NCBI GenBank assembly: GCA_031459615.1
Contig: JAVKIE010000009.1
Span: 8,291 to 72,290, forward strand
Origin: Candidatus Calidihabitans tengchongensis
Lineage (GTDB): Bacteria; Sysuimicrobiota; Sysuimicrobiia; Sysuimicrobiales; Kaftiobacteriaceae
Reading direction: 5' to 3'
Length of the DNA: 64,000 nucleotides
The notes under the pieces were generated by a model that was not told the origin of the DNA, did no database searches, and was given only the letters and a program-made list of their open reading frames with translations. Position numbers and translations under genes: made by a program. Shown in pieces: positions 690 through 22,344 of the stretch. Every line of letters begins with the position of its first letter. The first letter of the stretch is position 1.

Positions 690-2258
690 ATGTCTGAAGC
701 CCCGCGCTCGTCCGTCTGGCCCGGGTGGTGGCTTGCGGCAGCCGTGGCTGTCCTGGCGGCGGGCCTGAATCTCCCCCTCACAGACGGCGATACGGCGCTG
801 TACGCCACGGTCGCCCGGGACGCGCTGGCCCGCGGAGAGTGGGTCGCCTACACCTTCCGGGACGGGCGCGTCTTCGACAAGCCGCCGCTGACCCTCTGGC
901 TGCTGCAGGTTTCCATCGCCGCGTTCGGGACGGCGGAGTGGGCGGTGCGGTTGTGGCATCTGGCGCTGGCGCTGGCGACCGCCGGCGCGACCTACCGGCT
1001 GGCGCGCCTGGTCCTTCCGGTGCGGGAGTCGCTGCTGGCCGCGGTGGTCCTGCTGACCTCGGCGCAGTTCTTCTACCAGGCCCTGGTCCCCCAGCAGGAC
1101 GTGCCGCTGACGCTGTTCGTGGCCCTGGCGGTGTACGGCTACCTGCGCTGGGAGGCGGACGGGCGCGTGGTCTGGGCCGTCGTGGCGGGGGTGGCGGCCG
1201 GGCTGGCCGTCCTGTCCAAGGGGCTGGTGGGGGTGGTGCTGCCGGCTCTGGTCGCGGGGACGCGGCTGGTCGTGGACCGTCCGCGGCCTCCCGCCCGGTG
1301 GCCGGTGGCGCTGGCCGTCGCGGCCGCCGCGTGCCTGGCGGTGGCCGCCCCGTGGTTTGTGGCGGCCGGACTGCGCCAGGGCCGGGAGTTTGTGGAGACG
1401 TTCTTCGGGGGCGGGACTCTGGGCGTGGGCCGCTTCTTCCGTCCGGCCCTGTCCGCGCCGGGGTGGGTGCCGGCTGCGGCCGGGCTGTTCGCCTACGCGG
1501 TCTTCCTGCCGCTGGGCCTGCTGCCCTGGACGGGGTGGCTGTGGCCGGCGCTGCGGGAGGGCCTCCGCGCGCGCGATCGCGTGCTGCGGGTGTGCTTTCT
1601 GTGGGTTGTGGCGGTGCTGGTCTTTCTGTCGGTGTCGCCGGGAGACAAGGTCATCCGGTTCCTGCTGCCGGTCTTTCCGCCGGCGTCCGTGCTGCTCGCC
1701 TCCGTCGTGTCCGACCCTCGCAGGATCCGGGGGGCGTCGGCGGTCTCGCTGGCGGCAGGGGGCCTGCTGACGGCGGCCCTGGTGACGCTGGCGGCGGCCC
1801 CGCTGCCGGCCGAAGTGACGCCGTTCCGGCCGGTGGCAGCCGCCCTGCTGCTGCCGCTGGCCGGGGGGCTGGCGGTGTCCTCGCTCCTCCTGCGGACGAG
1901 AGCCGGCCGCTCCGCAGTCCCCGCGCTGGCCGCGGCGGCGCTTGCCGGCTACAGCCTTCTCCTGGTGGCGACGGCCCGCCAGTGGGACCGGATGTCCCCG
2001 TGGAGGCCGGTGGCCAGGATGGTGGAAGTGGCGGCCGCCGAGGACACCCACGTCCTCGTCGAAGGCGAGCCGACACCGTTCGCCTGGTTCTACATCCGGC
2101 GGCCGGTGCGCTTTGTCTCCCGCGACGGGCTGGCGGCCGAGTGGACGAGCGGGCGGGTCGTGGCCGTCATGCCCGTGGACATGGTGGCCGCCCTGCCCGG
2201 TCCTCCGGTGGTGGTGGGCGGCGCCCCGGGCGGGCTGGTGGTGGTCAAGAACTACTAG
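690..2258 (+). CDS. GT39/GT83-type polyprenyl-phosphate-sugar transferase (ArnT/PMT family), a polytopic membrane protein.
   Basis: The 522-aa product has many TM helices. Its N-terminal region has the DxD...KPPL signature (DGDTALY...DKPPLTLW) typical of ArnT/PMT glycosyltransferases. Confidence 0.75.
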   Translation: MSEAPRSSVWPGWWLAAAVAVLAAGLNLPLTDGDTALYATVARDALARGEWVAYTFRDGRVFDKPPLTLWLLQVSIAAFGTAEWAVRLWHLALALATAGATYRLARLVLPVRESLLAAVVLLTSAQFFYQALVPQQDVPLTLFVALAVYGYLRWEADGRVVWAVVAGVAAGLAVLSKGLVGVVLPALVAGTRLVVDRPRPPARWPVALAVAAAACLAVAAPWFVAAGLRQGREFVETFFGGGTLGVGRFFRPALSAPGWVPAAAGLFAYAVFLPLGLLPWTGWLWPALREGLRARDRVLRVCFLWVVAVLVFLSVSPGDKVIRFLLPVFPPASVLLASVVSDPRRIRGASAVSLAAGGLLTAALVTLAAAPLPAEVTPFRPVAAALLLPLAGGLAVSSLLLRTRAGRSAVPALAAAALAGYSLLLVATARQWDRMSPWRPVARMVEVAAAEDTHVLVEGEPTPFAWFYIRRPVRFVSRDGLAAEWTSGRVVAVMPVDMVAALPGPPVVVGGAPGGLVVVKNY

Positions 2259-4578
2259 GGGACGACGCCGCGGGCCGGGGCAGCAGGGCCAGCACCTCCG
2301 CCGCGATCTGACTGACGGCTCCGGGGGGCCCCATCCGCTGCCGTCCTGCCTCGCCTCTGCGGGCCCGCTCGGCGGGATTTCCCAGCAGGCGCAGGACGGC
2401 CTCCGCGGCTTCGTCCCAGGAGCCCACCGCCACCACCGCATCTCCCAGGATGCGCTGCTGCAGCCGCAGGAACGGGCGCGTGAACTGGGGGCCGGGACCC
2501 GGGAACGCCACCACGGGTTTGCCCAGTCCCGCCGCCTGCTCGTTGGCGGTTCCGGCCAGCCCGACCACCACATCAGCGACGCGCACGGCCGCGCCGAAGG
2601 CGCCCGTCAGGCGCACGGCCGCCTCCGAAGAGCGCAGCACGTCTCCGTCCGCCTGCCACCCGGCCCGCACGGCTGTCGCGTGCACGCGGTCCAGGTCCAG
2701 AGACGGCGCCAGCGCGCACACGAGGTTGACCCGCTCCGTCCGGCCCACCCGGCCCGCCAGGGCCAGCAGCAGCTCCAGGTTGCCGTAGGCCTCCTGGCGG
2801 CTTCCCGGCAGCAGGAGTACCGTCGGCAGGCGCGGGTCCAGGCGGGGGTCCGTGCCGTCGGGGCCGATGGTGTCCATCAGGGGGTTGCCCACATGGCGCG
2901 CCGGGACGCCCCGGGCCGCCAGGGCCGAAGCGGTGAGGGCATCCCGGGCGAACACGACCGCGGGCAGCCGGCGCATCAGCCGCAGCTCCAGCCACTGGTG
3001 AGGCTCGCCGTGCTCGGATTTGGCCGTGGCGATGTAGACCACCGGCCGGCCGGCGTGGGCGGCCATCCACAGGCAGTAGAAGTCCCCAATCGCCACCACC
3101 GCGTCGAACCGGCCGCGGCACGCCCGCAGGGTGCGCCGCTGCTGCCACCACAGGCGCAGGACGCCGGCGCGCAGGTCGGCCAGCAGGCCCGGCAGGTGGT
3201 TGCGGAATCCGAACCCCCCCGAGGGCAGCGCGCGCCGGGGGTCCAGGAGCGGGATGTCGCGGTAGGCCGTGCCCAGGCCGACCAGGGGAAAGGCCGCCAC
3301 ATCTGCCGCCGGGCGCAAGGCCTGCGCCAGGACCATCCCCACGGCGTCCTCCCCGTGGCCGTTGCTGACCACCAGGACCGACGGCCGGCCCGCCAGCGGG
3401 GCCGGATCCCCGGAGACCGGGGCAGGCTGGCGATGTTGTGAGAATGCCGCCTGCACGGCGACCAGCATCCAGAACCCTGCCGCCACGTTGACGGTCATGA
3501 TTGTCCCGTCGAACTGCTCCCTCACCAGCAGGCCCACAAACGCCGCCAGCACCGCGGCGGCGAGGATCCGCTCCTCCCGCGTGGCCGCCGCGCGGCGCCA
3601 CCGGTAGCCGGCTGCCAGGGCGCCAGCGATCACGGCGACCAACGCCGCCAGCCCCACCAGTCCCCCTTCGGCCGCCGCGTTGAGGATGATATTGTGGGCG
3701 AACGCGCGGGGTATTGCATCGACCACGACGTAGTCCGGGTGCACCATCCAGAAAGTGTTCATCCCCGTCCCCACCAGCGGGTGGTCACGAAAGATGGCGA
3801 GGGCCGCCCGGGCCAGGGCGAGGCGGTCCTCGTTGGCGGCCGGATTGAAGATGGTGGCTGCCCGCTGCACAATCCCCGGTCCAGCCGAGGGGAACAGCAC
3901 CACCCAGACGGCGGCGGCGGCTGCCAGCGACACCAGTGCCGGTGCCACCCACCGTCCCCGCACCATCACGAGCAGTGCGACCACTCCCGCCGCGGCGCCC
4001 ACCCAGGACCCCCGGGAGTACGTGAGGGCGAGGGCGAGGACAGAGGTCGCTCCGGTCGCGGCGGCCAGCAGGCGGACCGCCCCCGCAGACGTCATCGCCA
4101 GGCCCAGGCTGAGGACGCACGCGATCATCAGCGTCGTCCCCAGCGGGTTTACCGACAGGGCCGGCAGCTCGGCCCGGCCGGTCAGCGGGGTACTGGCAAG
4201 GGTCCACACCGCCGCCCCCAGGCCGCCGGCGACCCACGCCCGGACCAGCGCCACCCCCAGCGAGGGCCTACCGCGCAGGTTCCGGTAGAAGGGGGCAAAT
4301 CCCGCCCACAGCACCAGGGCCGACAGCACGGCGGACCCCGTGGCGGTGCCGCGGTAGGGGGACGCCACCCCCGCCAGCAGAAACGCGGCGACAAATGCCG
4401 CCAGGGGCAGGTCCAGCGGGCTCCGCTCCCAGGGGATCCGCCGCGTCGCCAGGCCTTCTACGATGCCGAACACCAGCAGGAGGAACAGGCCCGCGGCCGC
4501 GTAGCCGGAGCTGAAGACCAGGGCGGTGCCCAGGATCAGCAGGCGTGTGAGGCGCGTCCACCAGGTCTCCTGGTTCAC
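2245..4578 (-). CDS. Fusion protein: an N-terminal O-antigen ligase (Wzy_C/WaaL-like) polytopic domain joined to a C-terminal lipid-A-disaccharide-synthase-related (LpxB-like, TIGR03492-type) glycosyltransferase domain.
   Basis: The 777-aa product starts at a GTG at 4578, overlapping the upstream gene's stop (GTGA). The N-terminal roughly 390 aa are TM-rich with a WaaL-like loop. The C-terminal roughly 380 aa (PSVLVVSNGHGED...) resemble LpxB-related proteins. Confidence 0.7.
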   Translation of the reverse strand: MNQETWWTRLTRLLILGTALVFSSGYAAAGLFLLLVFGIVEGLATRRIPWERSPLDLPLAAFVAAFLLAGVASPYRGTATGSAVLSALVLWAGFAPFYRNLRGRPSLGVALVRAWVAGGLGAAVWTLASTPLTGRAELPALSVNPLGTTLMIACVLSLGLAMTSAGAVRLLAAATGATSVLALALTYSRGSWVGAAAGVVALLVMVRGRWVAPALVSLAAAAAVWVVLFPSAGPGIVQRAATIFNPAANEDRLALARAALAIFRDHPLVGTGMNTFWMVHPDYVVVDAIPRAFAHNIILNAAAEGGLVGLAALVAVIAGALAAGYRWRRAAATREERILAAAVLAAFVGLLVREQFDGTIMTVNVAAGFWMLVAVQAAFSQHRQPAPVSGDPAPLAGRPSVLVVSNGHGEDAVGMVLAQALRPAADVAAFPLVGLGTAYRDIPLLDPRRALPSGGFGFRNHLPGLLADLRAGVLRLWWQQRRTLRACRGRFDAVVAIGDFYCLWMAAHAGRPVVYIATAKSEHGEPHQWLELRLMRRLPAVVFARDALTASALAARGVPARHVGNPLMDTIGPDGTDPRLDPRLPTVLLLPGSRQEAYGNLELLLALAGRVGRTERVNLVCALAPSLDLDRVHATAVRAGWQADGDVLRSSEAAVRLTGAFGAAVRVADVVVGLAGTANEQAAGLGKPVVAFPGPGPQFTRPFLRLQQRILGDAVVAVGSWDEAAEAVLRLLGNPAERARRGEAGRQRMGPPGAVSQIAAEVLALLPRPAASSPSSS

Positions 4579-7203: not shown

Positions 7204-8564
7204 GGCCGCCTCTCCGATCCCGCCGCCAGGGACAGGGCGCAGGCAGCGACCCGGTCGGCCGCCCCGGCCTCCGCCGGGTACAGCCGCCGCAGGTCAGCGG
7301 TGATGGCCGCCCGGCGGTCCCGGTCGGCCAGGAGGTCGGCCACCCGGCGCGCCAGGTCGGCCGGGCTGAACCGGCCGACCCACTCGGGTACGACCGCGCG
7401 GACGGCCCGGATGTTGGGCAGGGCCACCAGCCGCGGCCGGCGGAAATACCACGCCGCCGCGGCTCGCTTGAAGAGCCTGCCGACCCCGGGCAGCCGGCTG
7501 GCCCACTCCAGCAGACCTTCGGCCGGCGCGCGGTCAATGAGGTCGAGCGGAACGATGACGGCAAACGGCACGCCGAGCAGGGCGAGCTCCATGGTGTTGG
7601 TGCCCGGGATGGTCAGGACCAGATCGCTGTGCCTCAGGCTCTGCCAGGGCTCGCCGGCGACCCACCGCACCGGCAGGTGAGGCCAGCCCTCGCGCACCCG
7701 CCGCTGCAGGGATGCGACCAGGGCCGGGGAGAGGAACGGGGAGGCGACCACCTGGAACGTCACCCCGGGGCGCAGGCCGGCCAGAGCATCCGCGGCCCGC
7801 AGGAAGAAGGGGACCAGCTCCCGGGCAAACCGGTCCCGGCTGCCCGGCAGGATGGAAACCACTTCGCTTTCCCGCTCGTGACCGAAATCGCCGGCGCGGC
7901 CCGCTTCCGCGTGCGCCGCATCGGCCATCTGCGTCGTCCACCCGTCTCGGAGAGTATCGTCCCCCCCACCCTTCGCCTTCTGACTCCCCTCTCCCCTCCG
8001 GTCCTGACTCCCCTCTCCCCTCCGGGGAGAGGGCGAGGGTGAGGGGGCATGCAGGACCCCAGTCAGGGCGTCCGCCCGGGGATCCCCCGTCACCACCACC
8101 TTGCCCGCGGGGACCCCCAGGCCCACCAGGCGGCGGGCCAGGTCCTCGGAGGTGGCGCAGATGGTCTCAAACGCCGCATGCCGACGGGCCACCAGCGGCG
8201 TCTCCACCAGCGCGCAGGCGGGAACACGCAGCCGGCGGGCCAGCCGCGCGGAGAACCACAGGTCCCCGCCCAGGTGGACCACGGTGGCCTGCGGCACGAT
8301 GTCCAGCGGCTTCAGCCCCAGGGCCACCCGCACCGCCTCCGCCGGTTCCAGGATCCGGTCAAACAGCCCCCAGCTCCGCGCCACCGCCGGCTCGCGCCCG
8401 CCCGCAAACTGGGTGGGCGACAGGACCAGTGTCACCCGCAGCCCCGGCGGGCCCGCGCGACGGGCGGCGTCCGCCACCGGACGGATCCACCCCGCCAGTT
8501 CGCCGGGGCCGTTGCCGGCGAGGATGAGGTCGACGATGTCGGGCAGCGCCGATCCGTGCGGCAT
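7200..8564 (-). CDS. Lipid-A-disaccharide synthase family (GT19, LpxB-like) glycosyltransferase with a low-complexity insertion.
   Basis: N-terminus IVDLILAGNGPGELAGWIRP and the overall length fit the LpxB family. It is the first gene of a four-gene minus-strand operon. Confidence 0.65.
   Translation of the reverse strand: MPHGSALPDIVDLILAGNGPGELAGWIRPVADAARRAGPPGLRVTLVLSPTQFAGGREPAVARSWGLFDRILEPAEAVRVALGLKPLDIVPQATVVHLGGDLWFSARLARRLRVPACALVETPLVARRHAAFETICATSEDLARRLVGLGVPAGKVVVTGDPRADALTGVLHAPSPSPSPRRGEGSQDRRGEGSQKAKGGGDDTLRDGWTTQMADAAHAEAGRAGDFGHERESEVVSILPGSRDRFARELVPFFLRAADALAGLRPGVTFQVVASPFLSPALVASLQRRVREGWPHLPVRWVAGEPWQSLRHSDLVLTIPGTNTMELALLGVPFAVIVPLDLIDRAPAEGLLEWASRLPGVGRLFKRAAAAWYFRRPRLVALPNIRAVRAVVPEWVGRFSPADLARRVADLLADRDRRAAITADLRRLYPAEAGAADRVAACALSLAAGSERRP
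7981..8028 (-). repeat. Perfect in-frame 2 x 24-bp tandem duplication inside the lpxB-like CDS. It encodes RRGEGSQD/RRGEGSQK and is followed by a complementary GA-rich segment at 8029-8048.
   Basis: tgactcccctctcccctccggtcc followed by tgactcccctctcccctccgggga is seen directly in the sequence. Confidence 0.8.
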
Positions 8565-8646: not shown

Positions 8647-10218
8647 GTGGGCAGACGAACGCCTTTCGCGGTGTGCGTGGTCCTGACGGGCGCTCTGCTG
8701 ATTTCCCCAGGCACCGTTGCACGGGCCTCCGAAGGAGGACACGGGGCCTGCGGGGGTGCCGCCGCGCGCCTGGAGGGTGGCCGCGTGGCGTCGCCGGCGG
8801 TGTCCCCGGACGAGCTGACCGTCGAGGCGGATCGGATCGTCTACGACGATGCCGCCCGGACGGTGGAGGCCGTGGGACGGGTTACCCTCGCCTACCGCGG
8901 GATTGGTGTGCGGGCCGATGTGGTCCGCGTGGACCTGGACGCCGGACGCGTGGAGGCCCGCGGGCACGTCATCATCCTGGACTCCCAGGGACGGGAGATG
9001 CGGGGAGATGTCCTCGTCTATGACGCCCGGCACGAGGCCGCCGAGCTGGCGCCGGCCGAGACGATCGTCAGCGGCGTGTACGTGCGCGCCGCGCAGGTGC
9101 GGGCCACCCGCGAGCGCATCGAGGCCACCGACGCGACCCTCACCACCTGCCATCCCGCCGCGCCTCCCTACCGCGTCACCGCCCAGCGCCTGGAGGTCAT
9201 TCCCGACGACCGCGTGACGGCGTACGGGGCCACCTTGTGGGCGGGCCGCCACTGGCTCCTCGGCCTGCCGGTGCTGGTGGTGTCCCTGCGCAGCCCCCAG
9301 GAGACCGCGGGGAGCTTTCCGAGCGTCGGATACAACAACGTCGACGGGCTGTGGGCGGCCTACAGGTACGCCTTTCCCACGGGCACGCCGCGCGCTGATG
9401 TGTCCGCCGCCCTGGGGACCCTGGCCCAGCGGGTCGAAGGCGGCCTGAGCCTCTCCCCGCAGCCGCTGGCGGGATCATTCCTGTGGTCGGCCGCCGTCCG
9501 CTACGGGTGGCACCGGGAGCAGGGGACAGGCGTCGAGACGACCAGGTTGCGCTATGAGGCGGGCGTGCACCTTCCCCCTGTGGCGTTGGGCCCGACGACC
9601 GAGGCGAGGGCAGCCTGGACCTGGCGGCAGGCCACCTACGCCACCGGCGACCGCCTGGAGACGGCGGTGGCGGACGTGGCGGTCACCCACCGCCTGGGAC
9701 CGCAGGCGCTGCTGTCTTTGACCCACGCCCAACTGCGCCCGGCGGGAACGACGCCGCTGGCCGTGGATGTCGTCAATCCCGCGGACATCGTCGACCGCGT
9801 GACACTGGCCTATGAGACATCCGGCCTGCGGGACGGCACCGTGGCCACCAGGTTTTCCGCCTCGGCCTCCTATGACTTTCTCACGGAGACCCCGTCGGTC
9901 GGCGTGTCCTACGGTGAGCGGATCCCGGGCGCCTACCACTGGACGGTGGGTCCGGCCTACAATCTCACCACCCGCGCGACCACCCTGCGGGCCGACGTCG
10001 GATGGGCCCTGGGGACCGACGCCTACGTCACCGTTCGGGGGACATACAATACGACCACGGCGCTGTTCGAGGACCTGGATTATATCCTCACGGCGCAGGT
10101 CGAGGGCTGTTTTGAGCTCTCGGTCGAGTACCGCCAGGTCCGCCAGGAGCTGTGGGTCTCCCTGGGCCTGGCGGCGTTTCCCCAGGCTCAGATGCAGTTT
10201 CAGTTCCGGGGTCCCTGA
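8647..10218 (+). CDS. LptD/OstA-like protein with an OstA_N beta-jellyroll and a C-terminal beta-rich domain, carrying a signal peptide.
   Basis: The GTG start gives MGRRTPFAVCVVLTGALLISPGTVARA-SEGG, a signal peptide. The OstA-like segment ADRIVYDD...TLTTCHPAAPPYRVTAQRLEVIPDD matches LptD. The SD is weak, with the GGAGG run about 18 nt upstream. Confidence 0.55.
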   Translation: MGRRTPFAVCVVLTGALLISPGTVARASEGGHGACGGAAARLEGGRVASPAVSPDELTVEADRIVYDDAARTVEAVGRVTLAYRGIGVRADVVRVDLDAGRVEARGHVIILDSQGREMRGDVLVYDARHEAAELAPAETIVSGVYVRAAQVRATRERIEATDATLTTCHPAAPPYRVTAQRLEVIPDDRVTAYGATLWAGRHWLLGLPVLVVSLRSPQETAGSFPSVGYNNVDGLWAAYRYAFPTGTPRADVSAALGTLAQRVEGGLSLSPQPLAGSFLWSAAVRYGWHREQGTGVETTRLRYEAGVHLPPVALGPTTEARAAWTWRQATYATGDRLETAVADVAVTHRLGPQALLSLTHAQLRPAGTTPLAVDVVNPADIVDRVTLAYETSGLRDGTVATRFSASASYDFLTETPSVGVSYGERIPGAYHWTVGPAYNLTTRATTLRADVGWALGTDAYVTVRGTYNTTTALFEDLDYILTAQVEGCFELSVEYRQVRQELWVSLGLAAFPQAQMQFQFRGP

Positions 10219-10238
10219 CGATCTTGAGTCGTGGAGTT

Positions 10239-10283
10239 GATTGAGTAGATTGAGCCGATTGCGCAGATTGCGTAGATTGAATG
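10239..10283 (+). repeat. Five tandem copies of a 9-bp unit, GATTG(A/C)(G/A)(T/C)N, ending at the phosphomannomutase start codon.
   Basis: gattgagta gattgagcc gattgcgca gattgcgta gattgaatg. It is a relatively AT-rich patch in a 70% GC window. Confidence 0.8.
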
Positions 10284-11674
10284 TGGTGACCATCTCCCCG
10301 ACGATCTTCCGCGAATACGACATCCGCGGTGTGGCCGGGCGCGACATCACCCCCGAGGTCGCCGAGGCCATTGCCCGGGCGTATGCGTCCTACCTGCGCA
10401 CAGAGGGGGCACAGGAGCGCGAGACTCCGGTCCTGGTGGGCAGGGACAACCGCGAGAGCTCTCCGTGGATCCGCGACGCCGTGGTGCGCGGCCTGGTGGG
10501 AAGCGGATGCCGCGTGGTGGACATCGGCACGGTGATCACCCCGGTCTTCTACTTCGCCCGGGTGCACTACGGCATCGACGGCGGGGTGATGGTCACCGCC
10601 AGCCACAACCCGCCCGAGTTCAACGGCTTCAAGCTGGCCCACGGATTCGGCACCCTGTACGGCGAGCAGATCCAGCAGATCCGCCGGCTGACGGAGGCGG
10701 GGGAGTTTGTCGGGGGGGTCGGGTCCGTGGAGGCCCGCGACGTGATCCCCGCGTACCGGGCGATGCTCCGGGAAAAGGTCCGCCTGGGTCCGCGGCGGCT
10801 GCGGGTGGTGGTGGACTGCGGTAACGGCACCGCCAGCCTGGTGGCCCCCGACGCTCTGGAGGACCTGGGGGTGGAGGTCGTCCGCCTGTACTGCGAGTCC
10901 GACCCGCGCTTTCCCCACCACCACCCCGACCCGGTGCAGCCGGAGAACCTGCGCGACCTGATCGCCGCCGTGCGCCGCGAGGGCGCCGACGTGGGCTTCG
11001 GCTTTGACGGCGACGGGGACCGGCTGGGGGTGGTGGACGACCGGGGCGAGATCGTCTGGGGCGACATCCTGATGATCCTGTTCTGGCGGGAGATCCTGCC
11101 CCGCCACCCCGGGACGGTGGGGATCGTGGAGGTCAAGTGCTCCCAGGCGCTGTACGACGAGATCCAGCGCCTGGGCGGCCGGCCCATGTTCTACCGCACC
11201 GGCCACTCCCTCATCAAGGCCAAGATGCGCGAGGTGGGCGCCGTCTTCACCGGCGAGATGTCGGGCCACATGTTCTTCGCCGACGAGTACTACGGCTACG
11301 ACGACGCCGTCTACGCGGCGGCCCGGCTGCTGCGGATCCTCTCCCACACCGACCGGCCCCTGTCGGCGCTGCTGGCCGACGTGCCCCGCTACCCGGCCAC
11401 CCCCGAGGTCCGCGTGGACTGCCCCGACGAGGTGAAGTTCGAAGTCGTCCGCTCCCTCACCGAGCAGTTCAAGCGGGAGGGCTACCCGGTGATTGACGTG
11501 GACGGGGCCCGGGTGCTGTGTGCGGACGGGTGGGGCCTGGTGCGGGCCAGCAACACCCAGCCGGTCCTGGTCCTGCGGGCGGAGGCCCGGACGCCGGAGG
11601 GCCTGGAGAGGATCAAGCGCACCCTGGAGCAGGCGCTGTCCCGTTTCGCCGACGTCGGTCCCGTGCGCTGGTGA
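10283..11674 (+). CDS. Phosphomannomutase/phosphoglucomutase (alpha-D-phosphohexomutase family).
   Basis: TIFREYDIRGV, the active-site loop TASHNPPEFNGFK and the metal loop FGFDGDGDRLG are all present. The start could instead be TTG 10241 with a GGAG SD, which would make the repeats coding. Confidence 0.8.
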   Translation: MVTISPTIFREYDIRGVAGRDITPEVAEAIARAYASYLRTEGAQERETPVLVGRDNRESSPWIRDAVVRGLVGSGCRVVDIGTVITPVFYFARVHYGIDGGVMVTASHNPPEFNGFKLAHGFGTLYGEQIQQIRRLTEAGEFVGGVGSVEARDVIPAYRAMLREKVRLGPRRLRVVVDCGNGTASLVAPDALEDLGVEVVRLYCESDPRFPHHHPDPVQPENLRDLIAAVRREGADVGFGFDGDGDRLGVVDDRGEIVWGDILMILFWREILPRHPGTVGIVEVKCSQALYDEIQRLGGRPMFYRTGHSLIKAKMREVGAVFTGEMSGHMFFADEYYGYDDAVYAAARLLRILSHTDRPLSALLADVPRYPATPEVRVDCPDEVKFEVVRSLTEQFKREGYPVIDVDGARVLCADGWGLVRASNTQPVLVLRAEARTPEGLERIKRTLEQALSRFADVGPVRW

Positions 11675-11863: not shown

Positions 11864-12889
11864 GTGAAGGCCATCATCCCCGCCGCCGGGATGGGGACGC
11901 GGCTGCGGCCCCACACCTTCACCCAGCCCAAGGCCCTGCTGCCGGTGGCCGGGCGGCCGATCCTGGCCCACATCGTGGACGAGCTGTCCGCCTGCGGCGT
12001 CGACGAGGTCATCCTGGTGCTGGGCTACCTGGGCGAGCGGGTGATCGACTTCGCCCGCAGGCGCTATCCGCACCTGACCGTGCGCGCCGTCTGGCAGGAG
12101 CAGCCCCTGGGCAACGGCCACGCCGTCTACGTGGCCCGGGAGTACCTGGACGGCACGCCGGCGGTCATCATCTTCGGCGACACCATCGTCAAGGGCGACC
12201 TGGCCGCCCTGGTGCGCGGCCCGCACTCCCTGGCCGGGGTGAAGGAGGTGGCCGACCCCCGGCGGCTGGGGGTGGTGGAAGTGGACCGGGAGGGCTTGAT
12301 CCGGCGCATCGTGGAAAAGCCGGAGGTGCCGCCCAGCCGCCTGGCGGTGATCGGCGTCTACTACATCACCGACACCCTGGCCCTGCGCGAGGCGCTGGAG
12401 CGGCTGGTGGCCGAAGACCGCCGCCAGCGGGGGGAGTTCTGGCTGGCCGACGGGCTGCAGCTGATGCTGGACCGGGGGGTGCCGATGCGGCCGTTTGCGG
12501 TCGAGCGTTGGTACGACTGCGGGACCGTGGAGGCGTGGCTGCAGGCCAACCGGGACCTGCTGGCGCTGGACCCCCCGCCGGTCCCGGAGGGGCTGGGCGG
12601 GACGGTGATCCCCCCCTCCTACGTCAGTTCCTCGGCGACCCTCGAGGGGTCGGTGGTGGGCCCCCATGCGTGCGTGGGGGATGAGGTCCGGGTGGTGCAC
12701 TCCACGGTCCGGGACTCGATCCTCCTGCCGCGGGCGGTCGTGGAAGACGCCCACCTGACCGCCTCGGTGGTGGGCGAGGGCGCGGCGGTGCGCGGGGTGC
12801 GGGGACGGGTCAACATCGGCGATGCCTCGCGCGTGGAGGGCGCGTCTGGAGAGGCCGGCGGCGCGGGCAGAGACCCGATGCCGCCATGA
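11864..12889 (+). CDS. Sugar-1-phosphate nucleotidyltransferase with a C-terminal left-handed beta-helix (mannose-1-P guanylyltransferase / RmlA-GlmU-like).
   Basis: The GTG start gives VKAIIPAAGMGTRLRP, the NTP-transferase signature. Confidence 0.75.
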   Translation: MKAIIPAAGMGTRLRPHTFTQPKALLPVAGRPILAHIVDELSACGVDEVILVLGYLGERVIDFARRRYPHLTVRAVWQEQPLGNGHAVYVAREYLDGTPAVIIFGDTIVKGDLAALVRGPHSLAGVKEVADPRRLGVVEVDREGLIRRIVEKPEVPPSRLAVIGVYYITDTLALREALERLVAEDRRQRGEFWLADGLQLMLDRGVPMRPFAVERWYDCGTVEAWLQANRDLLALDPPPVPEGLGGTVIPPSYVSSSATLEGSVVGPHACVGDEVRVVHSTVRDSILLPRAVVEDAHLTASVVGEGAAVRGVRGRVNIGDASRVEGASGEAGGAGRDPMPP

Positions 12890-13821
12890 GGCACCGGCTG
12901 CCTGCTCTACCCGCCGCCCTCGCGATCCTGCTGGGTGGACTGCTCGCCCTCTCCGGGCCTGCCGGCGCCTCCTCCAGGGCACAGACGTACGTAGTTCGCC
13001 CGGGCGACACCCTGTGGGCCATCGGCGCCCGTCTGGGGGTGCCAGCCAACACCCTGGCGCAGGCCAACGGAATCTCGGATCCGGAACGACTGGTCCCCGG
13101 GCAGGTCCTGCGGGTGCCGGCGGGGCCGGCCTCGCGGCGGCCTCCTTCCTCCGGCACCCGGCCGGCCGCTGCATCACGGGGTCCGGCGCTGGTGGTCGCC
13201 GTCCACCGGGTGCGGTGGGGCGACACCCTGCTGGCCATCGCCCGCCGCTACCGCGTCCCCGTCGAGTGGATCGTCCGGGCCAACGGGCTGTGGTCGGACA
13301 GGATCCACCCCGGCCAGCGCCTGGCGATTCCCACCCGGCGGGGAGTGGAGGTGCTGGCGCGCCGCCACGGACCTCCCCCGCGCCCGATCCCGGTGCCCCC
13401 GGCCGCGTTCGCGCGCTCGGCGGCGGCCGGAACGGCGGCGTGGGATCTGGTCCAGCGGGCACGCCGGTACCTGGGCGTCCCCTACCGCTGGGGCGGCGAG
13501 TCGCCTGCGGGGATGGACTGCTCGGGGCTGGTGCACCGGGTCTTCGCCCCGTACCTGTCGGGGGTGGGGCGGCTGACCTCCTACGACTACTTCCGCCTCG
13601 GCCGGCCGGTCCGGCCGGAGGCGATCCTGCCGGGCGACGTGGTGTTTTTCACCACCGACGAGCCGGGGCCGTCCCACGTGGGGATCTTCATCGGCGCCGG
13701 CCTGTTCATCCACGCCTCCTCGGCCGCGGGCGAGGTCACCGTCACCTCCCTGGACGACCCGCTGTACCGGGAGCGCTTCCTCGGGGTGCGGCGCCTGGTC
13801 GACCTGTCGGCGCGCAATTGA
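12886..13821 (+). CDS. Secreted peptidoglycan hydrolase with two LysM domains and an NlpC/P60 domain.
   Basis: Signal peptide. Two copies of [13 protein letters not shown]...NGI; Cys/His catalytic region MDCSGLV ... SHVGIF. Confidence 0.85.
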
Positions 13822-14952: not shown

Positions 14953-16119
14953 ATGCGCCTGGGCACCGTCTCCGCCGCCGCCGTCCTGGTGCTGGCGCTG
15001 GCGGGCCCGCTGGCCCCGCCGGCCCCGGCGTCGGCGTCGGCTCACGTGGTCCGGCCGGGCGAGACCCTGTACCGGATCGCCCTGCGCTACGGCGTGCCCG
15101 TGGACGCCCTGGCGGCGGCCAACGGGATCGCCGACCCCGCGCGCATCCGCGCCGGCCAGGTCCTGCGCATCCCGGCGGCCGGCGCCCGCCCGGTGCGGCC
15201 GTCTGCGGCCCCGCGCATTGCCCCCCCATCCGTCCAGACCTCTGCCCGCGGGCCGCGCGCCGACCTGGCCTCCGTTCAGGTCCGCCGCATCAGCCTGCGC
15301 TACACCGTCGGCCGCGGGGACACGCTGTACGGCATTGCCCGCCGGTTCGGCGTCACAGTCCACGCCCTGCGTGGCGCCAACGGATTGCGGTCGGACCTGA
15401 TCCACCCCGGCCAGAGGCTGGTGGTCCCCGGCGCCCGCGTCGTCGTGCGCATTCCTCCGCCCGGCCCGACCGTGCGCCTGCGCCTGCCGGTCCCCCAGCC
15501 CGCGCCCGCCCCGCAGATCCCTGACCTGGACACCGGCGATGAGATCAGCGCGCCCCGTCCCGTCCGCGTGCGCCGGGGCCCGGCGTCGTATTTCACCACC
15601 CTGGCCGTCGCCGCGGCTCAGACCCCGCTGCAGGTGGTCGGTCGCCGGGACGAGTGGTACGAGGTGCGCCTGCCCGACGACACCACCGGCTGGATCCGCG
15701 CCGCCGACCTGACCCCGCCGCCACCCATCCCCGCCTCTCCCCAGCCCGCCGCGGCGGTGGTCGTCCGGGAGGCGTTGCAGTACGTGGGCACCCGGTACGT
15801 CTGGGGAGGCGCGTCGGCAGGGGGGCTGGACTGCTCGGGGTTCGTCTACCTGGTCTTCTCGGCGTTCGCGCCCGAGCTGGCCCGCCTGCGCTCCTTTGAC
15901 TACTTCCGCCTGGGCGTCCCGGTGCCCCCGGGCCAGCTGCGGCCGGGCGACCTGGTCTTCTTCACCACCTACGCCCCCGGTGCGTCCCACGTCGGGATCT
16001 ACCTGGGCGACCGCCGCTTCATCCACGCCTCCAGCAGCGCCCGCCAGGTCACCGTCTCGTCCCTGGATGAGCCGTACTACGCCGCCCGCTACGTGGGCGC
16101 CCGGCGGCTGGCTCCCTGA
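14953..16119 (+). CDS. Second secreted peptidoglycan hydrolase, with two LysM domains, an SH3b-like domain and an NlpC/P60 domain.
   Basis: Signal peptide; two LysM repeats; WYEV...GWI SH3-like segment; LDCSGFV...SHVGIY catalytic core. Confidence 0.85.
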   Translation: MRLGTVSAAAVLVLALAGPLAPPAPASASAHVVRPGETLYRIALRYGVPVDALAAANGIADPARIRAGQVLRIPAAGARPVRPSAAPRIAPPSVQTSARGPRADLASVQVRRISLRYTVGRGDTLYGIARRFGVTVHALRGANGLRSDLIHPGQRLVVPGARVVVRIPPPGPTVRLRLPVPQPAPAPQIPDLDTGDEISAPRPVRVRRGPASYFTTLAVAAAQTPLQVVGRRDEWYEVRLPDDTTGWIRAADLTPPPPIPASPQPAAAVVVREALQYVGTRYVWGGASAGGLDCSGFVYLVFSAFAPELARLRSFDYFRLGVPVPPGQLRPGDLVFFTTYAPGASHVGIYLGDRRFIHASSSARQVTVSSLDEPYYAARYVGARRLAP

Positions 16120-16214
16120 CCTGCGCTGGACTGGCCCGCGCGCCGGTGCCAGGGTTTGACAGTCTTTGCACAGAACAAGGTCAGCAGGACAGTCCGACGC
16201 TTCTGGGAGCCCCG

Positions 16215-17621
16215 ATGCCCAGGACCACCGCCCGACGGCGCGCCCGGAGACCCCTGCGCGGCCTCGCGCGCCCGTCCCGCTCTGCACCCCCCACCCGGGT
16301 CATCATCCTGGGGGCGGGGGGACGCGACTTCCACAACTTCAACGTCGTGTACCGGGATCGGCCGGAGTACCGGGTGGTGGCGTTCACGGCCACCCAGATC
16401 CCCGAGATCGAGAACCGCATCTACCCTCCCGACCTGGCCGGGCCCCTGTACCCGGAGGGGATCCCCATCTACCCCGAGGAGGAGCTGGCCGACCTCATCC
16501 GCCGCCTGCGGGCGGACCAGGTGGTGTTTGCCTACAGCGACGTCTCCCACGAGCACGTGATGCACGTCAGCTCCCTGGCGCTGGCCGCCGGCGCCAGCGT
16601 GGTCCTGCTGGGCCCCCGGGCCACCATGCTGACGGCGCGGGTGCCGGTGGTGAGCATCGGCGCCGTGCGCACCGGCGCCGGCAAGAGCCCCGCCACTCGC
16701 CGGGTGGCCCAGATCCTGCGGGGCCTGGGGCTGCGGGTGGCCGTCGTCCGCCACCCGATGGCCTACGGCGACCTGGCCCGCCAGCGGGTGCAGCGGTTCG
16801 CCACCCTGGAGGACCTGGACCGGATCCCCGTGACCCTCGAGGAGCGGGAGGAATACGAGCCGCACCTGGCGGCGGGGACGGTGGTGTACGCCGGCGTGGA
16901 TTACCGGGAGGTCATCCGCCAGGCGCAGCGGGAGGCCCACGTGCTGGTGTGGGACGGCGGCAACAACGACTTCCCTTTCGTGCGCTCGGGCCTGCACATC
17001 GTGCTGGCCGATCCCCACCGGCCCGGCCACGAGCTCACCTACCACCCGGGGGAGACCAACCTGCGGATGGCCCAGGTGGTGGTCATCACCAAGGTGGACA
17101 CCGCCCGCCCCGACGACGTGGCGGCCGTGCGCGCCAACGTCGCGCGGGTGAATCCCCAGGCGGTGGTCATCGAGGCGGCCCTGCCCCTGGAGGTGGACCG
17201 TCCCGACCTGCTGGCGGGGCGGCGGGCGGTGGTGGTGGAGGACGGCCCCACCCTCACCCACGGCGAGATGTCCTACGGCGCGGGCGTGCTGGCCGCCCGG
17301 GCCCACGGCGCCACCTTGGTGGACCCGCGCCCGTATGCCGTGGGCTCCATCCGCGAGGTGTTCGCCCGCTACCCCCACCTGGGCGCGGTCCTGCCGGCCA
17401 TGGGCTACAGCCCGGCCCAGATTCGGGAACTGGAGCAGACCCTCGCCGCCGCCGACTGCGACGTGGTGGTCATCGGCACGCCCGTGGACCTGCGGCGGGT
17501 CATCGCCCTGCGGCATCCGGCGGTGCGGGTGCGCTACGAACTGCGGGAGCGGACCCGGCCCACCCTGGAGGAGATCCTGACCCGGTGGGTGCGGGAGGGC
17601 GCGCGGGCGGGGGGACAGTAG
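16215..17621 (+). CDS. DUF1611-type Rossmann/P-loop-like protein, of the family annotated as CPGS-like or DgcN-like.
   Basis: VIILGAGGRDFHNFN and SIGAVRTGAGKS motifs. The family assignment is from memory of DUF1611 architecture and is the least certain call in this operon. Confidence 0.45.
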   Translation: MPRTTARRRARRPLRGLARPSRSAPPTRVIILGAGGRDFHNFNVVYRDRPEYRVVAFTATQIPEIENRIYPPDLAGPLYPEGIPIYPEEELADLIRRLRADQVVFAYSDVSHEHVMHVSSLALAAGASVVLLGPRATMLTARVPVVSIGAVRTGAGKSPATRRVAQILRGLGLRVAVVRHPMAYGDLARQRVQRFATLEDLDRIPVTLEEREEYEPHLAAGTVVYAGVDYREVIRQAQREAHVLVWDGGNNDFPFVRSGLHIVLADPHRPGHELTYHPGETNLRMAQVVVITKVDTARPDDVAAVRANVARVNPQAVVIEAALPLEVDRPDLLAGRRAVVVEDGPTLTHGEMSYGAGVLAARAHGATLVDPRPYAVGSIREVFARYPHLGAVLPAMGYSPAQIRELEQTLAAADCDVVVIGTPVDLRRVIALRHPAVRVRYELRERTRPTLEEILTRWVREGARAGGQ

Positions 17622-18572: not shown

Positions 18573-19385
18573 GTGCCGGAGATCCGCCCGCAGGACATCA
18601 TCGACATCCTCATCGTCACCCTGCTGGTCTACCAGCTGCTGCTGCTGATCCGGGGCACCCGGGCGGTGCAGCTGGTCATCGGGCTGGGAATTCTGGTGGC
18701 GGCCTACGCCGTCAGCCGGGCCCTGGGCCTGTACACGCTCCAGTCGGTCCTCCAGTACCTGGGCGTGGTGATCCCCATCGCCCTGCTGGTCATCTTCCAG
18801 CCCGAGCTGCGGCGCATGCTGGAGCAGCTCGGACGCGGCGGCGTGCTCATCAGCGGGCTCACACCCCACGCCCTGGGGCGGGAGGAGCGCATCCGGCTGG
18901 CCAACGACCTGGCCCGGGCCGCGCGCATCCTGGGGCTGCGCAAGATCGGCGCGCTGATCGTCCTGGAGCGGCAGACGGGGCTGGAGGACTTCATCGAGAC
19001 CGGCGTGCGGGTGGATGCGGTGGTCACCGTGCAGCTGCTCATCACCCTGTTCTTCCCCAATTCCCCGCTGCACGACGGGGCGGCCATCATCCGCGGCAAC
19101 CGGGTGGTGGCCGCCGGCTGCCTGCTGCCCCTGTCGGAGAACCCGTCCCTGGCCCGCCTCCTGGGCACGCGCCACCGGGCGGGGGTCGGGATCACCGAGC
19201 AGACCGACGCGGTGAGCCTGATCGTGTCCGAGGAGACCGGGACGATCAGCCTGGCCCGGGAGGGCGAGCTGATCCGGGGACTGTCGGAGGAACAGGTGAA
19301 GGCCGCCCTGCTGGAACTGACGGCGCCCGGCCCGGCGGCCGCCGTGGGCCCGTGGCGGTGGTGGAGGACGATCCGCCGCTCATGA
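18573..19385 (+). CDS. cdaA: Diadenylate cyclase (c-di-AMP synthase) with three N-terminal TM helices and a DAC domain.
   Basis: DAC-domain motifs DGA and RHR (within GTRHRAGVG) are present. The architecture and the downstream cdaR-glmM synteny match cdaA. Confidence 0.9.
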   Translation: MPEIRPQDIIDILIVTLLVYQLLLLIRGTRAVQLVIGLGILVAAYAVSRALGLYTLQSVLQYLGVVIPIALLVIFQPELRRMLEQLGRGGVLISGLTPHALGREERIRLANDLARAARILGLRKIGALIVLERQTGLEDFIETGVRVDAVVTVQLLITLFFPNSPLHDGAAIIRGNRVVAAGCLLPLSENPSLARLLGTRHRAGVGITEQTDAVSLIVSEETGTISLAREGELIRGLSEEQVKAALLELTAPGPAAAVGPWRWWRTIRRS

Positions 19386-20041
19386 AACTGCGCCGCCCTC
19401 TGCTCAGCGAGCAGCAGTTGCTCCTGCTCCTGTCGTTTCTCATCGCGGTGACCTCCTGGTATTATGTGGTGTCCACCCGCCCGCCCCGCGGCCCGCAGGT
19501 CACCTCCAAGGTGGTGGCCGTGATCCCCCGGATCGAGGGCGAGCCGGCCTACGGGTACAGCATGCTGGGCGTCCGGGTCACCCCGCCCACGGTCGTCGTG
19601 ACCGGCGTGGCCGAGCAGCTGGCCGCCCTGGACGCCGTGCGCACCGAGGCCGTGGACGTGACCGGGGCCACCCGGGATGTGGTGCGGGAGGTGGCGGTGG
19701 ACGCGCCGTCGGGAATGGCCCGCCCGGCCCGCGTGCGGGTGGCGGTGCAGGTGGTGCCGGCCATCGCGGCCCGGGTCGTCCCCGGCGTGCGGGTCCGGGT
19801 GCAGAACGTCCCGCCGGGGGTGGTGGCGCGCGTGGAGCCGTCCACCATCGCGGTGCAGGTGCAGGGGCCGGTGGCGGTGGTCAGCCGGCTCCGGCCCGAC
19901 GACCTGGTGGCGGTGGTGGACGGGGCCGACCTGTCCGAGGGGCGCCGGCGGGTGCGGCCCCAGGTGGTGGCGCCCGAGCAGGTGACGGTGGTCGACCTGC
20001 GGCCGGACATGGTGGTGGTGGTCGTCCGCCGGGGAGGATAG
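19382..20041 (+). CDS. cdaR: YbbR-domain regulator of CdaA.
   Basis: ATGA overlap with the cdaA stop. N-terminal TM helix followed by beta-rich YbbR-like repeats. The position between cdaA and glmM is conserved synteny. Confidence 0.7.
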   Translation: MKLRRPLLSEQQLLLLLSFLIAVTSWYYVVSTRPPRGPQVTSKVVAVIPRIEGEPAYGYSMLGVRVTPPTVVVTGVAEQLAALDAVRTEAVDVTGATRDVVREVAVDAPSGMARPARVRVAVQVVPAIAARVVPGVRVRVQNVPPGVVARVEPSTIAVQVQGPVAVVSRLRPDDLVAVVDGADLSEGRRRVRPQVVAPEQVTVVDLRPDMVVVVVRRGG

Positions 20042-20100
20042 CAGGTGCACGGGAGCATGTGCGCGGGCGGGCTGCAGGCGCCCGACCGGTGAGGGGCGCG

Positions 20101-21459
20101 GTGGGCCGTCTGTTCGGAACCGACGGCGTGCGCGGCGTCGCCAACGTGGACCTGACGCCCGAGCTGGCCCTGCGCCTGGGGCGGGCGGCGGCCCACCTGC
20201 TGAGTCCCGCCGGCGGCGGGCAGTTCCTGGTGGGCCGCGACACCCGCCTCAGCGGGCCGATGCTGGAGGCGGCGCTGGTGGCCGCCATCTGCTCGGCCGG
20301 CGGCCAGGCCCTGCGGGGCGGGATCCTGCCCACGCCTGCCGTGGCGTACCTCACCCGGCGGCTGGGGGCGACCGCCGGGGTGGTCATTTCGGCCTCCCAC
20401 AACCCGGTGGAGGACAACGGCATCAAGTTCTTCGGCCGCGACGGCTTCAAGCTGCCCGACGCCGTCGAGGACGCCATCGAGGCCCTGCTGGACTCGCCGG
20501 ACCTGCGGCGGGCCGTGGGCCTGCAGGTCGGGCGCGCCGAGGACATCCCCGAAGCCGCCGACCTCTACGTGGACCACCTGGCGGCCCTGGCCGTCGCCCC
20601 GGCGGCCGGGCTGCGGGTGGTGGTGGACTGCGCTCACGGCGCGGCCTGCCGCACCGTCCCTGCCCTGTGGGAGGCGCTGGGCGCCACGGTGATTCCCATC
20701 AACGACACGCCCGACGGCGCGCGGATCAATGTCCGCTGCGGCTCCACCCACCCCGATGTGGTGGCCCAGGCGGTGCGGGACCGCCGGGCGGACGTGGGAT
20801 TCGCCCACGACGGGGACGCCGACCGGGTCATCGCGGTGGACGAGACCGGCGCCGTGGTGGACGGGGACGGCCTGCTGGCCATTTGCGCCCTCCACCTGCA
20901 CGCCCGGGGACGGCTGCCCGGCGCGCGGGTGGTGGCCACCGTGATGTCCAACCTGGGTCTGGAACGGGCCCTGCGCCGGGCGGGAATCACCCTGGAGCGC
21001 ACCCGGGTCGGTGACCGCTACGTGCTGGAGCGGATGCGCCAGGTCGGGGCGACGGTGGGCGGCGAGCAGAGCGGGCACATCATCTTCCTGGACCACGCCA
21101 CGACCGGCGACGGCGCCCTGACGGCGGTGCAGGTGGTGAACGTGATGCTGCAGACCGGCAAACGTCTGTCGGAACTGGCCGCGGTGGTGGAGCGGCTGCC
21201 CCAGGTCCTGGTCAACGTGGCCGTGGCCGACCGCGCGGCTCTGGACACCCGCCCGGCCATCGCGCGCGCGGTGGCCGATGCGCAGCGGGCGCTGGGCGAG
21301 CGGGGGCGCGTGCTGGTGCGCGCCTCGGGCACCGAGCCCCTGGTGCGGATCATGGTGGAGGCGGAGGACGCCGCCCAGGCCGCGTCCCTGGCCGACCATC
21401 TGGCGGACGTGGTGGCCCGCGAGCTGGGCGGCCGCCGCCTGGAGGCCCCACGGGGTTAG
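20101..21459 (+). CDS. glmM: Phosphoglucosamine mutase.
   Basis: GRLFGTDGVRG and SASHNPVEDNGIKFF are present. Possible alternative start at 20059. Confidence 0.9.
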   Translation: MGRLFGTDGVRGVANVDLTPELALRLGRAAAHLLSPAGGGQFLVGRDTRLSGPMLEAALVAAICSAGGQALRGGILPTPAVAYLTRRLGATAGVVISASHNPVEDNGIKFFGRDGFKLPDAVEDAIEALLDSPDLRRAVGLQVGRAEDIPEAADLYVDHLAALAVAPAAGLRVVVDCAHGAACRTVPALWEALGATVIPINDTPDGARINVRCGSTHPDVVAQAVRDRRADVGFAHDGDADRVIAVDETGAVVDGDGLLAICALHLHARGRLPGARVVATVMSNLGLERALRRAGITLERTRVGDRYVLERMRQVGATVGGEQSGHIIFLDHATTGDGALTAVQVVNVMLQTGKRLSELAAVVERLPQVLVNVAVADRAALDTRPAIARAVADAQRALGERGRVLVRASGTEPLVRIMVEAEDAAQAASLADHLADVVARELGGRRLEAPRG

Positions 21460-21465
21460 CGCCCG

Positions 21466-22272
21466 GTGGCATCGGCCGCGCATCCTCCCGGCCGCGTTCC
21501 CGCCGACCGCGAGCCGCCCGCCTCCGAACTGCTGGGGGTTCGGGTCCACCACGTCACCCTGGACCAGGCGGTGGAGCGGGTGGCCGCCCTGATCGCCTCC
21601 GGCGGCCCGCATCAGGTGGTGACGGTCAACGGGGCGATGCTGGTGGCCGCCGCTCGGGATCCGGCCGTGCGCTCGATCCTGTCGCAGGCGTCGCTGGTGG
21701 TGCCCGACGGGGTCGGCGTGCTGGTGGCGGCGCGGATTCTGGGCCGCCCCCCCTTCGTGCGGGTGCCGGGCGTGGAGCTGGCCGAGCGTCTGTGCGCGGA
21801 GGCGGCCGCCGCCGGCTGGCGCGTGTTCCTGCTGGGGGCGGCGCCGGGGGTCGCCGACGACGCCGCGGAGGCGCTGCGCCGCCGCTATCCGGGCCTGCAG
21901 GTTGCCGGCGTCCACCACGGCTACTTCTCCGACGACGCTCCCGTCCTGGTCCAGATCCGGGCGGCCCGCCCGCACGTGCTGCTGGTCGCCCTGGGGTTTC
22001 CGCGCCAGGAGATGTGGATCGCCCGGCACCGGGCGGCGCTCGGCGTGCCGGTGAGCATGGGCGTGGGGGGGACGCTGGATGTGCTGGCGGGACGCGTGCG
22101 CCGCGCGCCGGCGTGGATGCAGCGGGCCGGGCTGGAGTGGGCGTACCGGATCGCCCGGGAGCCCCGGCGCCGGTGGCGGACGGCGGCGGCGCTCCCGCAC
22201 CTGATGGTGCTGGCGCTGAAGGCGCGGCTGCGCCGGGAGAGGGGAAAAGACCTCAATGGACAGGGATGCTAA
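21466..22272 (+). CDS. WecB/TagA/CpsF-family (GT26) glycosyltransferase, an N-acetylmannosaminyltransferase-like enzyme.
   Basis: LLGVRVHHVTLDQAV ... VVPDGVGVL ... LLGAAPGV ... GFPRQEMWI are family motifs. Confidence 0.8.
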   Translation: MASAAHPPGRVPADREPPASELLGVRVHHVTLDQAVERVAALIASGGPHQVVTVNGAMLVAAARDPAVRSILSQASLVVPDGVGVLVAARILGRPPFVRVPGVELAERLCAEAAAAGWRVFLLGAAPGVADDAAEALRRRYPGLQVAGVHHGYFSDDAPVLVQIRAARPHVLLVALGFPRQEMWIARHRAALGVPVSMGVGGTLDVLAGRVRRAPAWMQRAGLEWAYRIAREPRRRWRTAAALPHLMVLALKARLRRERGKDLNGQGC

Positions 22273-22344
22273 AGTGTGGTCTACTGAGAGGGCCCGCCGG
22301 CACCCGTGCGGGCGGGGGAGGTGAGAGCAAGCCGCAGGTCAGGT

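Follow-up and report, generated by a model that had tools for sequence, protein, structure and literature searches.

Our analysis of a stretch of 64,000 nucleotides from Candidatus Calidihabitans tengchongensis, a hot-spring bacterium of the Armatimonadota (contig JAVKIE010000009.1, positions 8,291 to 72,290; hereafter 'the window') reveals a single gene in which two enzymes that are normally separate proteins have been joined, i.e. a polytopic domain of the O-antigen ligase type (Wzy_C/WaaL) and a GT-B glycosyltransferase domain of the family TIGR03492, which is related to the lipid-A-disaccharide synthase LpxB. This fusion is a real gene that arose by a natural joining of the two enzymes. 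It seems moderately probable that these enzymes belong to one envelope-glycolipid pathway, probably that of lipopolysaccharide (LPS), and act successively on the same lipid. Both domain families are known, and the protein has already been deposited under a name that reflects one half only; their fusion is a variant that has not been described, in line with an original prediction made from the DNA alone, which knew of no standard model with this architecture, and no description of it was found in the literature searched.

With a G+C content of about 73%, the window is prone to long spurious open reading frames (ORFs), and since it stems from a metagenome-assembled genome (MAG), an error in sequencing or assembly might also have merged adjacent genes. 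Such an artefact, to which we assign practically no probability, is already refuted. There is not a single internal stop across the 777 codons, and G+C content at the third codon position (GC3) is 0.83-0.95 in every 300-nucleotide slice, versus 0.48-0.65 at codon position 2. This coding signal runs uniformly over the domain junction, with no shift in GC3 and no sign of a frame change, and the two enzymes are joined cleanly end to end via a linker of 11-17 residues. A deposited protein that NCBI attributes to an Armatimonadota MAG (P0001) is 99% identical to the window protein, and its exact sequence of 777 amino acids occurs in three MAG assemblies (GCA_031458495.1, GCA_031458505.1 and GCA_031296425.1) with identical neighbours and gene order. 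Moreover, fused orthologues with 50-62% identity were obtained from other samples. Uniform GC3, the same sequence in three assemblies and fused orthologues elsewhere thus exclude both a hidden frameshift and a chimeric assembly. The stop codon (TGA) of the GT2 glycosyltransferase gene upstream overlaps with the GTG start of the fusion gene (GTGA), and at its 3' end the latter overlaps a convergent gene of the ArnT/PMT_2 type by 14 nucleotides. The original prediction of one polypeptide with both domains at positions 2245-4578, given without a strand (which is the minus strand), is therefore borne out by Pfam, NCBIfam, the coding signal and the orthologues: the Wzy_C profile does match, and no hidden frameshift or stop separates two genes.

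Its assignment of both domains was likewise correct. In the N-terminal half, Pfam Wzy_C (PF04932) matches residues 177-313 with 68.8 bits (E=6e-19; cutoff 31.7 bits). An AlphaFold2 model, which was built on an alignment of 79 sequences and has a mean predicted local distance difference test (pLDDT) score of 84.9, predicts a WaaL-like fold of 12 transmembrane (TM) helices (TM1-TM6: 6-23, 27-45, 56-72, 76-103, 105-133, 143-163; TM7-TM12: 166-185, 189-206, 211-228, 297-330, 334-357, 362-382), in which a large, helical outer loop of 68 residues separates TM9 and TM10. TM12 is followed by the linker (residues 383-399) and a two-lobed Rossmann-type domain; pLDDT exceeds 93 in this C-terminal domain and is about 45-52 around residues 270-300 of the outer loop. 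R189, at the predicted outer end of TM8, as well as R252 and H295 align to R191, R265 and H313 of WaaL, i.e. to the active-site Arg/Arg/His residues whose roles have been described (PMC12800693; positions were assigned from this paper and by residue count on the printed alignment). Among 28 relatives, both arginines are conserved in all and the histidine in 25.

At the level of overall sequence, the distance from WaaL is large, with about 15% identity between the fusion and the ligase of Cupriavidus metallidurans (PDB 7TPG/7TPJ) or E. coli RfaL; a phmmer search with the full fusion protein gave no matches among PDB sequences, such that profile searches were needed. Could the Wzy_C half be something other than a lipid A-core ligase, e.g. 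a polymerase of the Wzy type, an O-oligosaccharyltransferase for proteins or, in the main, an anchor that holds the GT-B half at the membrane? Pfam Wzy_C spans ligases, polymerases and O-oligosaccharyltransferases alike, the equivalog models for RfaL (9.3 bits versus a cutoff of 277) and TfpM (likewise 9-10 bits) do not recognize this half, its best NCBIfam match is to the functionally unclear IctB family (TIGR00947; 53.5 bits, below the cutoff of 366.4), and in some related operons with separate genes (L005, L091) Wzy_C is missing. With the WaaL-type Arg/Arg/His residues and the WaaL-like fold with its outer TM9-TM10 loop on the other side of the balance, we consider such a different role quite improbable.

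The two halves appear to work on different sides of the inner membrane. On the predicted cytoplasmic side, Arg/Lys residues are found in the loop 46-55 (three), at R104 (one), in the loop 207-210 (two) and in the linker (two), and arginines at 326-337 sit at the predicted cytoplasmic turn between TM10 and TM11, while the short outer loops contain just one Arg/Lys in total. Twelve helices place the segment after TM12 inside, which together with the positive-inside rule argues for a cytoplasmic GT-B half. Thus, the WaaL-type Arg189/Arg252/His295 site is predicted by the model to face the periplasm and the GT-B domain to face the cytoplasm. Both termini of WaaL are cytoplasmic. In the solved structure of WaaL, the chain (about 400-410 residues) ends after the last TM helix, and so do the standalone relatives identified in this analysis, whereas the fusion continues into a GT-B domain of 380 amino acids that is predicted to be cytoplasmic.

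This C-terminal half is a full-length member of TIGR03492 ('lipid-A-disaccharide synthase-related protein'): residues 402-764 match positions 1-394 of the 396 in the NCBIfam profile (E=3.5e-94) with 315.7 bits, versus a curated cutoff of 219.2, and at all 42 invariant columns of a 31-sequence alignment the window protein has the invariant residue. When this domain was compared by hhalign with ten canonical LpxB sequences drawn from the fetched loci, full-length homology within one superfamily became apparent (99.3% probability, E=4.6e-20, 342 columns). By contrast, neither PF02684 nor TIGR00215, the models for LpxB (GT19), matches the fusion protein at E<=1 in Pfam and NCBIfam searches. With LpxB (PDB 5W8S), TIGR03492 has in common the GT-B fold, the motifs LLPGSR, G(H/N)PL(L/M)D and GTA-x-E, and the occurrence of its genes in the same clusters as lpxB; it differs in its N-terminal motif (SNGHGED rather than AGEASGD) and is a distinct family that coexists with canonical LpxB at the same loci. 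On this evidence, TIGR03492 is a genuine paralogue of LpxB, but not LpxB itself, and the earlier label 'GT19-like' holds for the homology, but not for membership of the LpxB family, which does not provide the closest structure either.

As had also been predicted, the two domains normally occur in different proteins, which is evident from nearly all relatives. As a standalone protein of 370-390 amino acids, the C-terminal half has 1504 relatives or more, many of which come from Armatimonadota. In the nearest split operons, those of sister Armatimonadota, the gene order is LpxB-like/ABC exporter/GT2a/Wzy_C (394 amino acids)/GT2b/TIGR03492 (381 amino acids) in L092 and the same in L004. Residues 6-382 of the fusion align to residues 5-384 of the standalone Wzy_C protein with 45% identity, and residues 394-762 align to residues 2-370 of the standalone TIGR03492 protein with 59% identity. 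The GT2 enzyme of the window is 61% identical to GT2a versus 39% to GT2b, i.e. it is the orthologue of GT2a. Across both split operons, gene order and orthology thus correspond to those in the window (Wzy_C 40-45%, TIGR03492 56-59%, GT2a 55-61% identity), the difference being that Wzy_C and TIGR03492 are separate there, with GT2b between them, whereas the window, and the fused lineage with it, has no GT2b and the frames are joined. We infer from these alignments that GT2b was lost and that the two frames were then joined by a Pro/Gly-rich linker of 11-17 residues.

Such fusions are rare. When 1.84 billion representative proteins (clustered at 50% identity) were searched exhaustively with HMMER, 463 clusters were obtained at E<1e-30, and among the best 150 of these only three (P0001, P0172 and P0200) carry both halves in one polypeptide, the rest having a single half. 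Besides P0001, the proteins P0002 (774 amino acids), P0003 (798) and P0172 (775) are fused orthologues; identities of 62%, 51% and 52% to the window protein were measured for fused orthologues, and the three are 50-62% identical when compared with it and among themselves; P0002 and P0003 also share its flanking genes, i.e. the upstream GT2 and the convergent PMT_2 gene. A protein that at first looked like a standalone relative with 75% identity (P0013) was rejected as such, as it is cut by a contig end and has the same convergent PMT_2 gene next to it; it is probably a further fused orthologue. P0200 is different: this distant fused protein from an unrelated lineage (795 amino acids, 34% identity to the window protein) is encoded on a contig of differing composition (68% G+C) with a different neighbour. 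Its C-terminal half has its nearest relative in a standalone protein (P0206, 54%), while its N-terminal half is most similar to unrelated Wzy_C proteins (29%). Since the nearest relatives of both its halves are standalone and its contig is unlike the others, this architecture has originated independently at least twice. As for the wider surroundings of the fused orthologues, genes of the ATP-sulfurylase, APS kinase and phosphodiesterase families lie beside one of them (L001:4290-7517) and a Wzz/Wzi/Wza-type polysaccharide export set beside another (L003:7201-11805), which points to polysaccharides that are sulfated or exported, and to the presence of an outer membrane, in these lineages.

What the GT-B half does is best approached via its family. 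As a mixed full-length alignment was insufficiently conserved for a genome scan, an alignment of the C-terminal domain was used, which yielded 551 TIGR03492 loci in species-representative genomes. These include Armatimonadota and many Bacillota MAGs (Limnochordales, Halanaerobiales, Negativicutes), but also Cyanobacteria, Margulisiibacteriota, Saganbacteria, Brevinematales, Synergistia, WOR-3, Omnitrophota and one Deinococcus MAG. In the best 80 of the 551 loci, same-strand genes within 3.5 kb were counted, with the counts being lower bounds as many contigs end nearby. An LpxB-like neighbour is present in 32 of these 80 loci, an MsbA-like exporter in 26 (directly adjacent in 20), a GT2 in 25, an ArnT/PMT_2-like gene in eight and a Wzy_C gene in six (plus three on the opposite strand), while none of the 80 contains a Wzy_C fusion. 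Among 132 ORFs that neighbour TIGR03492 in a diverse set of 24 loci, curated Pfam models identified 15 members of LpxB, 17 of ABC_tran, 11 of ABC_membrane, eight of Glycos_transf_2, six of LptF_LptG and three of LpxI, and in Bacillota MAGs canonical LpxB is found in the same cluster as TIGR03492. Published data are consistent with this setting, with homologues of LpxA-D in Armatimonadetes and of MsbA within the LPS clusters of diderm Firmicutes (Antunes et al., PMC5007114). The TIGR03492 family is thus embedded in clusters for lipid A/LPS synthesis and export.

Other fusions tell a similar story. TIGR03492 is joined to a true LpxK in P0276 (TIGR00682, 217 bits versus a cutoff of 92), to GT2 domains in either order in P0179, P0240 and P0265, and to an UshA-like metallophosphatase in P0275. 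All these proteins resemble the window fusion in that the GT-B family is covalently linked to another envelope-glycolipid enzyme; their partners, however, have matches to soluble-type domains only and are presumably cytoplasmic, such that the Wzy_C fusion alone would join TIGR03492 to a domain with its predicted active site across the membrane. The possibility that the metallophosphatase partner is LpxH was rejected, as it resembles the N-domains of nucleotidases of the UshA/SoxB type. L066:7015-10200 falls into the same group of LpxK, metallophosphatase and GT2 fusions, and separate metallophosphatase genes occur directly upstream of TIGR03492 in L062, L076 and L081. L062, from a Synergistia MAG, carries tandem TIGR03492 paralogues (8983-10125 and 10169-11344), with LpxB-like and metallophosphatase genes upstream.

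How could two enzymes with active sites on opposite faces of a membrane cooperate? The original prediction had suggested that the glycolipid made by the GT-B module is handed directly to the ligase module. This is unsupported and unlikely, because the predicted ligase site is outside and the predicted GT-B domain is in the cytoplasm; given this topology, the product of the GT-B half would have to be flipped before the ligase half sees it. The halves are probably linked by the MsbA-like exporter, which the operon encodes two genes further upstream, and from the LPS-cluster context it is plausible that the GT-B half makes the acceptor of the ligase. In this scheme, a lipid A-type precursor in the inner leaflet would first be glycosylated by the GT-B half; once flipped by the MsbA-like exporter, the product would serve the WaaL-like half as acceptor for an undecaprenyl-diphosphate-linked glycan at the outer face. 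The fusion itself would anchor an otherwise peripheral GT-B enzyme at the membrane and fix a 1:1 ratio of the two enzymes, and the convergently encoded ArnT-like GT-C protein may add more periplasmic decoration. A parallel exists in the E. coli gmhD-waaF-waaC-waaL operon, where GT-B glycosyltransferases of the core, located in the cytoplasm, share a transcript with a ligase that has a periplasmic site, with flipping by MsbA in between. In E. coli, however, the enzymes are separate proteins and the glycosyltransferases are GT9 enzymes rather than members of the LpxB superfamily.

Alternatively, the GT-B half might build the donor rather than the acceptor, i.e. extend an undecaprenyl-(di)phosphate-linked glycan in a MurG-like manner, which a PglK-like exporter would then flip for transfer or polymerization by the Wzy_C half outside. 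We regard this as unlikely: the homology between TIGR03492 and LpxB extends along the whole protein, the family is found fused to a true LpxK, and in the various phyla it is accompanied by LpxB, LpxI and LptF/G, not by genes for O-antigen initiation. A role of both halves in LPS synthesis is favoured by this full-length homology, by the operon, by the LpxB, MsbA, LptFG and LpxI neighbours, by the LpxK fusion and by the independent second fusion. Several points weigh against it. Structurally, the C-terminal domain is a generic GT-B, with UDP-GlcNAc 2-epimerases, GT1 enzymes, PimA and MurG all scoring higher than LpxB. In the literature searched, neither a paper that mentions TIGR03492 nor any biochemistry of a member was found. 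Both the topology and the mutual placement of the two domains are predictions. Wzy_C domains, as discussed above, are not confined to ligases. Finally, in the window itself, no canonical lpxA/C/D/B/K or waaA was identified among the ORFs scanned, the exporter scores below the equivalog cutoffs of both MsbA_rel (507 bits) and MsbA_lipidA (478 bits), and the LpxB-type protein encoded by the first gene of the operon ('LpxB-like 2') reaches only 28.9 bits with Pfam LpxB and 39.8 bits with TIGR00215, versus a cutoff of 190.

The operon in question consists of LpxB-like 2, the MsbA-like ABC exporter, the GT2 and the fusion gene, in this order (table 1).

Table 1. Positions in the window of the fusion gene, its parts and the neighbouring genes (aa, amino acids).
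Feature	Position	Strand	Remarks
ArnT/PMT_2-type GT-C protein, 522 aa	690..2258	plus	convergent; beside all fused orthologues
Whole fusion gene	2245..4578	minus	777 aa, GTG start
GT-B domain, TIGR03492, aa 400-765	2284..3381	minus	motifs SNGHGED, PSGGF, TAKS, GNPLMD, LLPGSR, GTANEQAAGLGKPVV
Interdomain linker, aa 383-399	3382..3432	minus	Pro/Gly-rich, low pLDDT, predicted cytoplasmic
WaaL/Wzy_C-type domain, aa 1-382	3433..4578	minus	12 TM helices, GT-C fold (predicted)
Large TM9-TM10 loop, aa 229-296	3691..3894	minus	predicted periplasmic; invariant R252, H295-N296 (HN-x9-G-xx-G)
GT2 glycosyltransferase, 298 aa	4575..5471	minus	no TM; orthologue of first GT2 (GT2a) of split operons
MsbA-like half-transporter ABC exporter, 579 aa	5464..7203	minus	ABC_membrane + ABC_tran; candidate flippase
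LpxB-like 2, 454 aa	7200..8564	minus	first operon gene; second LpxB paralogue, non-canonical

That the first of these genes encodes LpxB itself was considered and rejected, since its product scores about 40 bits on TIGR00215, versus 304-306 bits for canonical LpxB in Bacillota loci; its homology to canonical LpxB is nevertheless clear (hhalign, E=2e-33). Proteins of this kind (about 400-470 amino acids) reach about 40 bits on TIGR00215 as well as on TIGR03492 and are encoded not only in the window but also at L023:5107-6528, L029:5778-7100 and L004:2085-3293. In Bacillota MAGs, their genes lie between canonical lpxB and the msbA-like gene, and in the Armatimonadota loci examined theirs is the only LpxB-type gene of the operon. 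Judged by their sequences, they form a third paralogous line of LpxB. Inside the LpxB-like 2 ORF of the window (within 7950-8035, minus strand), a perfect palindrome, CCCTCTCCCCGGAGGGGAGAGGG, at 8008-8031 precedes a direct repeat of GGAGGGGAGAGGGGAGTCAG. This element encodes a low-complexity insert, SPSPSPRRGEGSQDRRGEGSQ, and a similar peptide, PSPSPSPPARGEGGNEP, forms the end of the fused orthologue P0003. It occurs once in the window and may be a small inserted repeat element.

Divergently from the operon, an ORF of 477 amino acids (8785-10218, plus strand) has no Pfam match above threshold, but a sub-threshold match to LptD (E=0.004, 16.9 bits) as well as a sequence pattern at its N-terminus that resembles OstA; its product could be a divergent LPS-assembly outer-membrane protein. 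Unannotated genes of 477-530 amino acids are found at the equivalent position in L088, L091 and L092. Farther downstream, an ORF of 491 amino acids (16146-17621, plus strand) matches no family above threshold and shows a sub-threshold match to the LpxK P-loop (E=0.0014, amino acids 163-201). The plus strand also carries two paralogous genes for LysM-NlpC/P60 cell-wall hydrolases (12886-13821 and 14953-16119, the second with SH3), separated by a stretch of 1.1 kb without any ORF that passes the coding filter, as well as a cluster of cdaA (DAC), ybbR, glmM, a WecG/TagA-family glycosyltransferase gene and glmS (18573-24648), which is the arrangement of the c-di-AMP cyclase operon of Firmicutes with the WecG/TagA gene inserted. 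Neither a glmS ribozyme nor any other Rfam family was detected upstream of the glmS cluster, and the window as a whole has no matches to Rfam families or tRNAs.

Overall, the fusion ties a widespread but unstudied family of LpxB paralogues to LPS assembly. Its double origin, the LpxK fusion and the LpxB, LpxI, MsbA and LptFG neighbours provide guilt-by-association evidence that the LpxB paralogue and the O-antigen ligase act on one and the same lipid, and the chief value of the fusion is this functional evidence for the TIGR03492 family. It is also an unusual case of a single polypeptide predicted to have glycosyltransferase sites on the two opposite sides of the inner membrane. A rather doubtful extension of this idea is that TIGR03492 is the cytoplasmic glycosyltransferase that adds the first core sugar to lipid A, i.e. 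a functional counterpart of WaaA, the transferase for 3-deoxy-D-manno-oct-2-ulosonic acid (Kdo); equally tentatively, this role might extend over Armatimonadota, cyanobacteria, diderm Firmicutes and other diderms related to them. The cyanobacterial set of genes is limited to lpxA/C/D/B, and the LPS of cyanobacteria contains no Kdo, heptose or phosphate (PMC3087551). If this were the role of TIGR03492, the Armatimonadota fusion would physically couple the initiation of the core at the inner leaflet to O-antigen ligation at the outer leaflet. The guilt-by-association evidence, for its part, makes one step of LPS assembly outside of the enterobacteria directly testable, and this includes the cyanobacteria, for which the enzymes of core attachment have, to our knowledge, not been identified.

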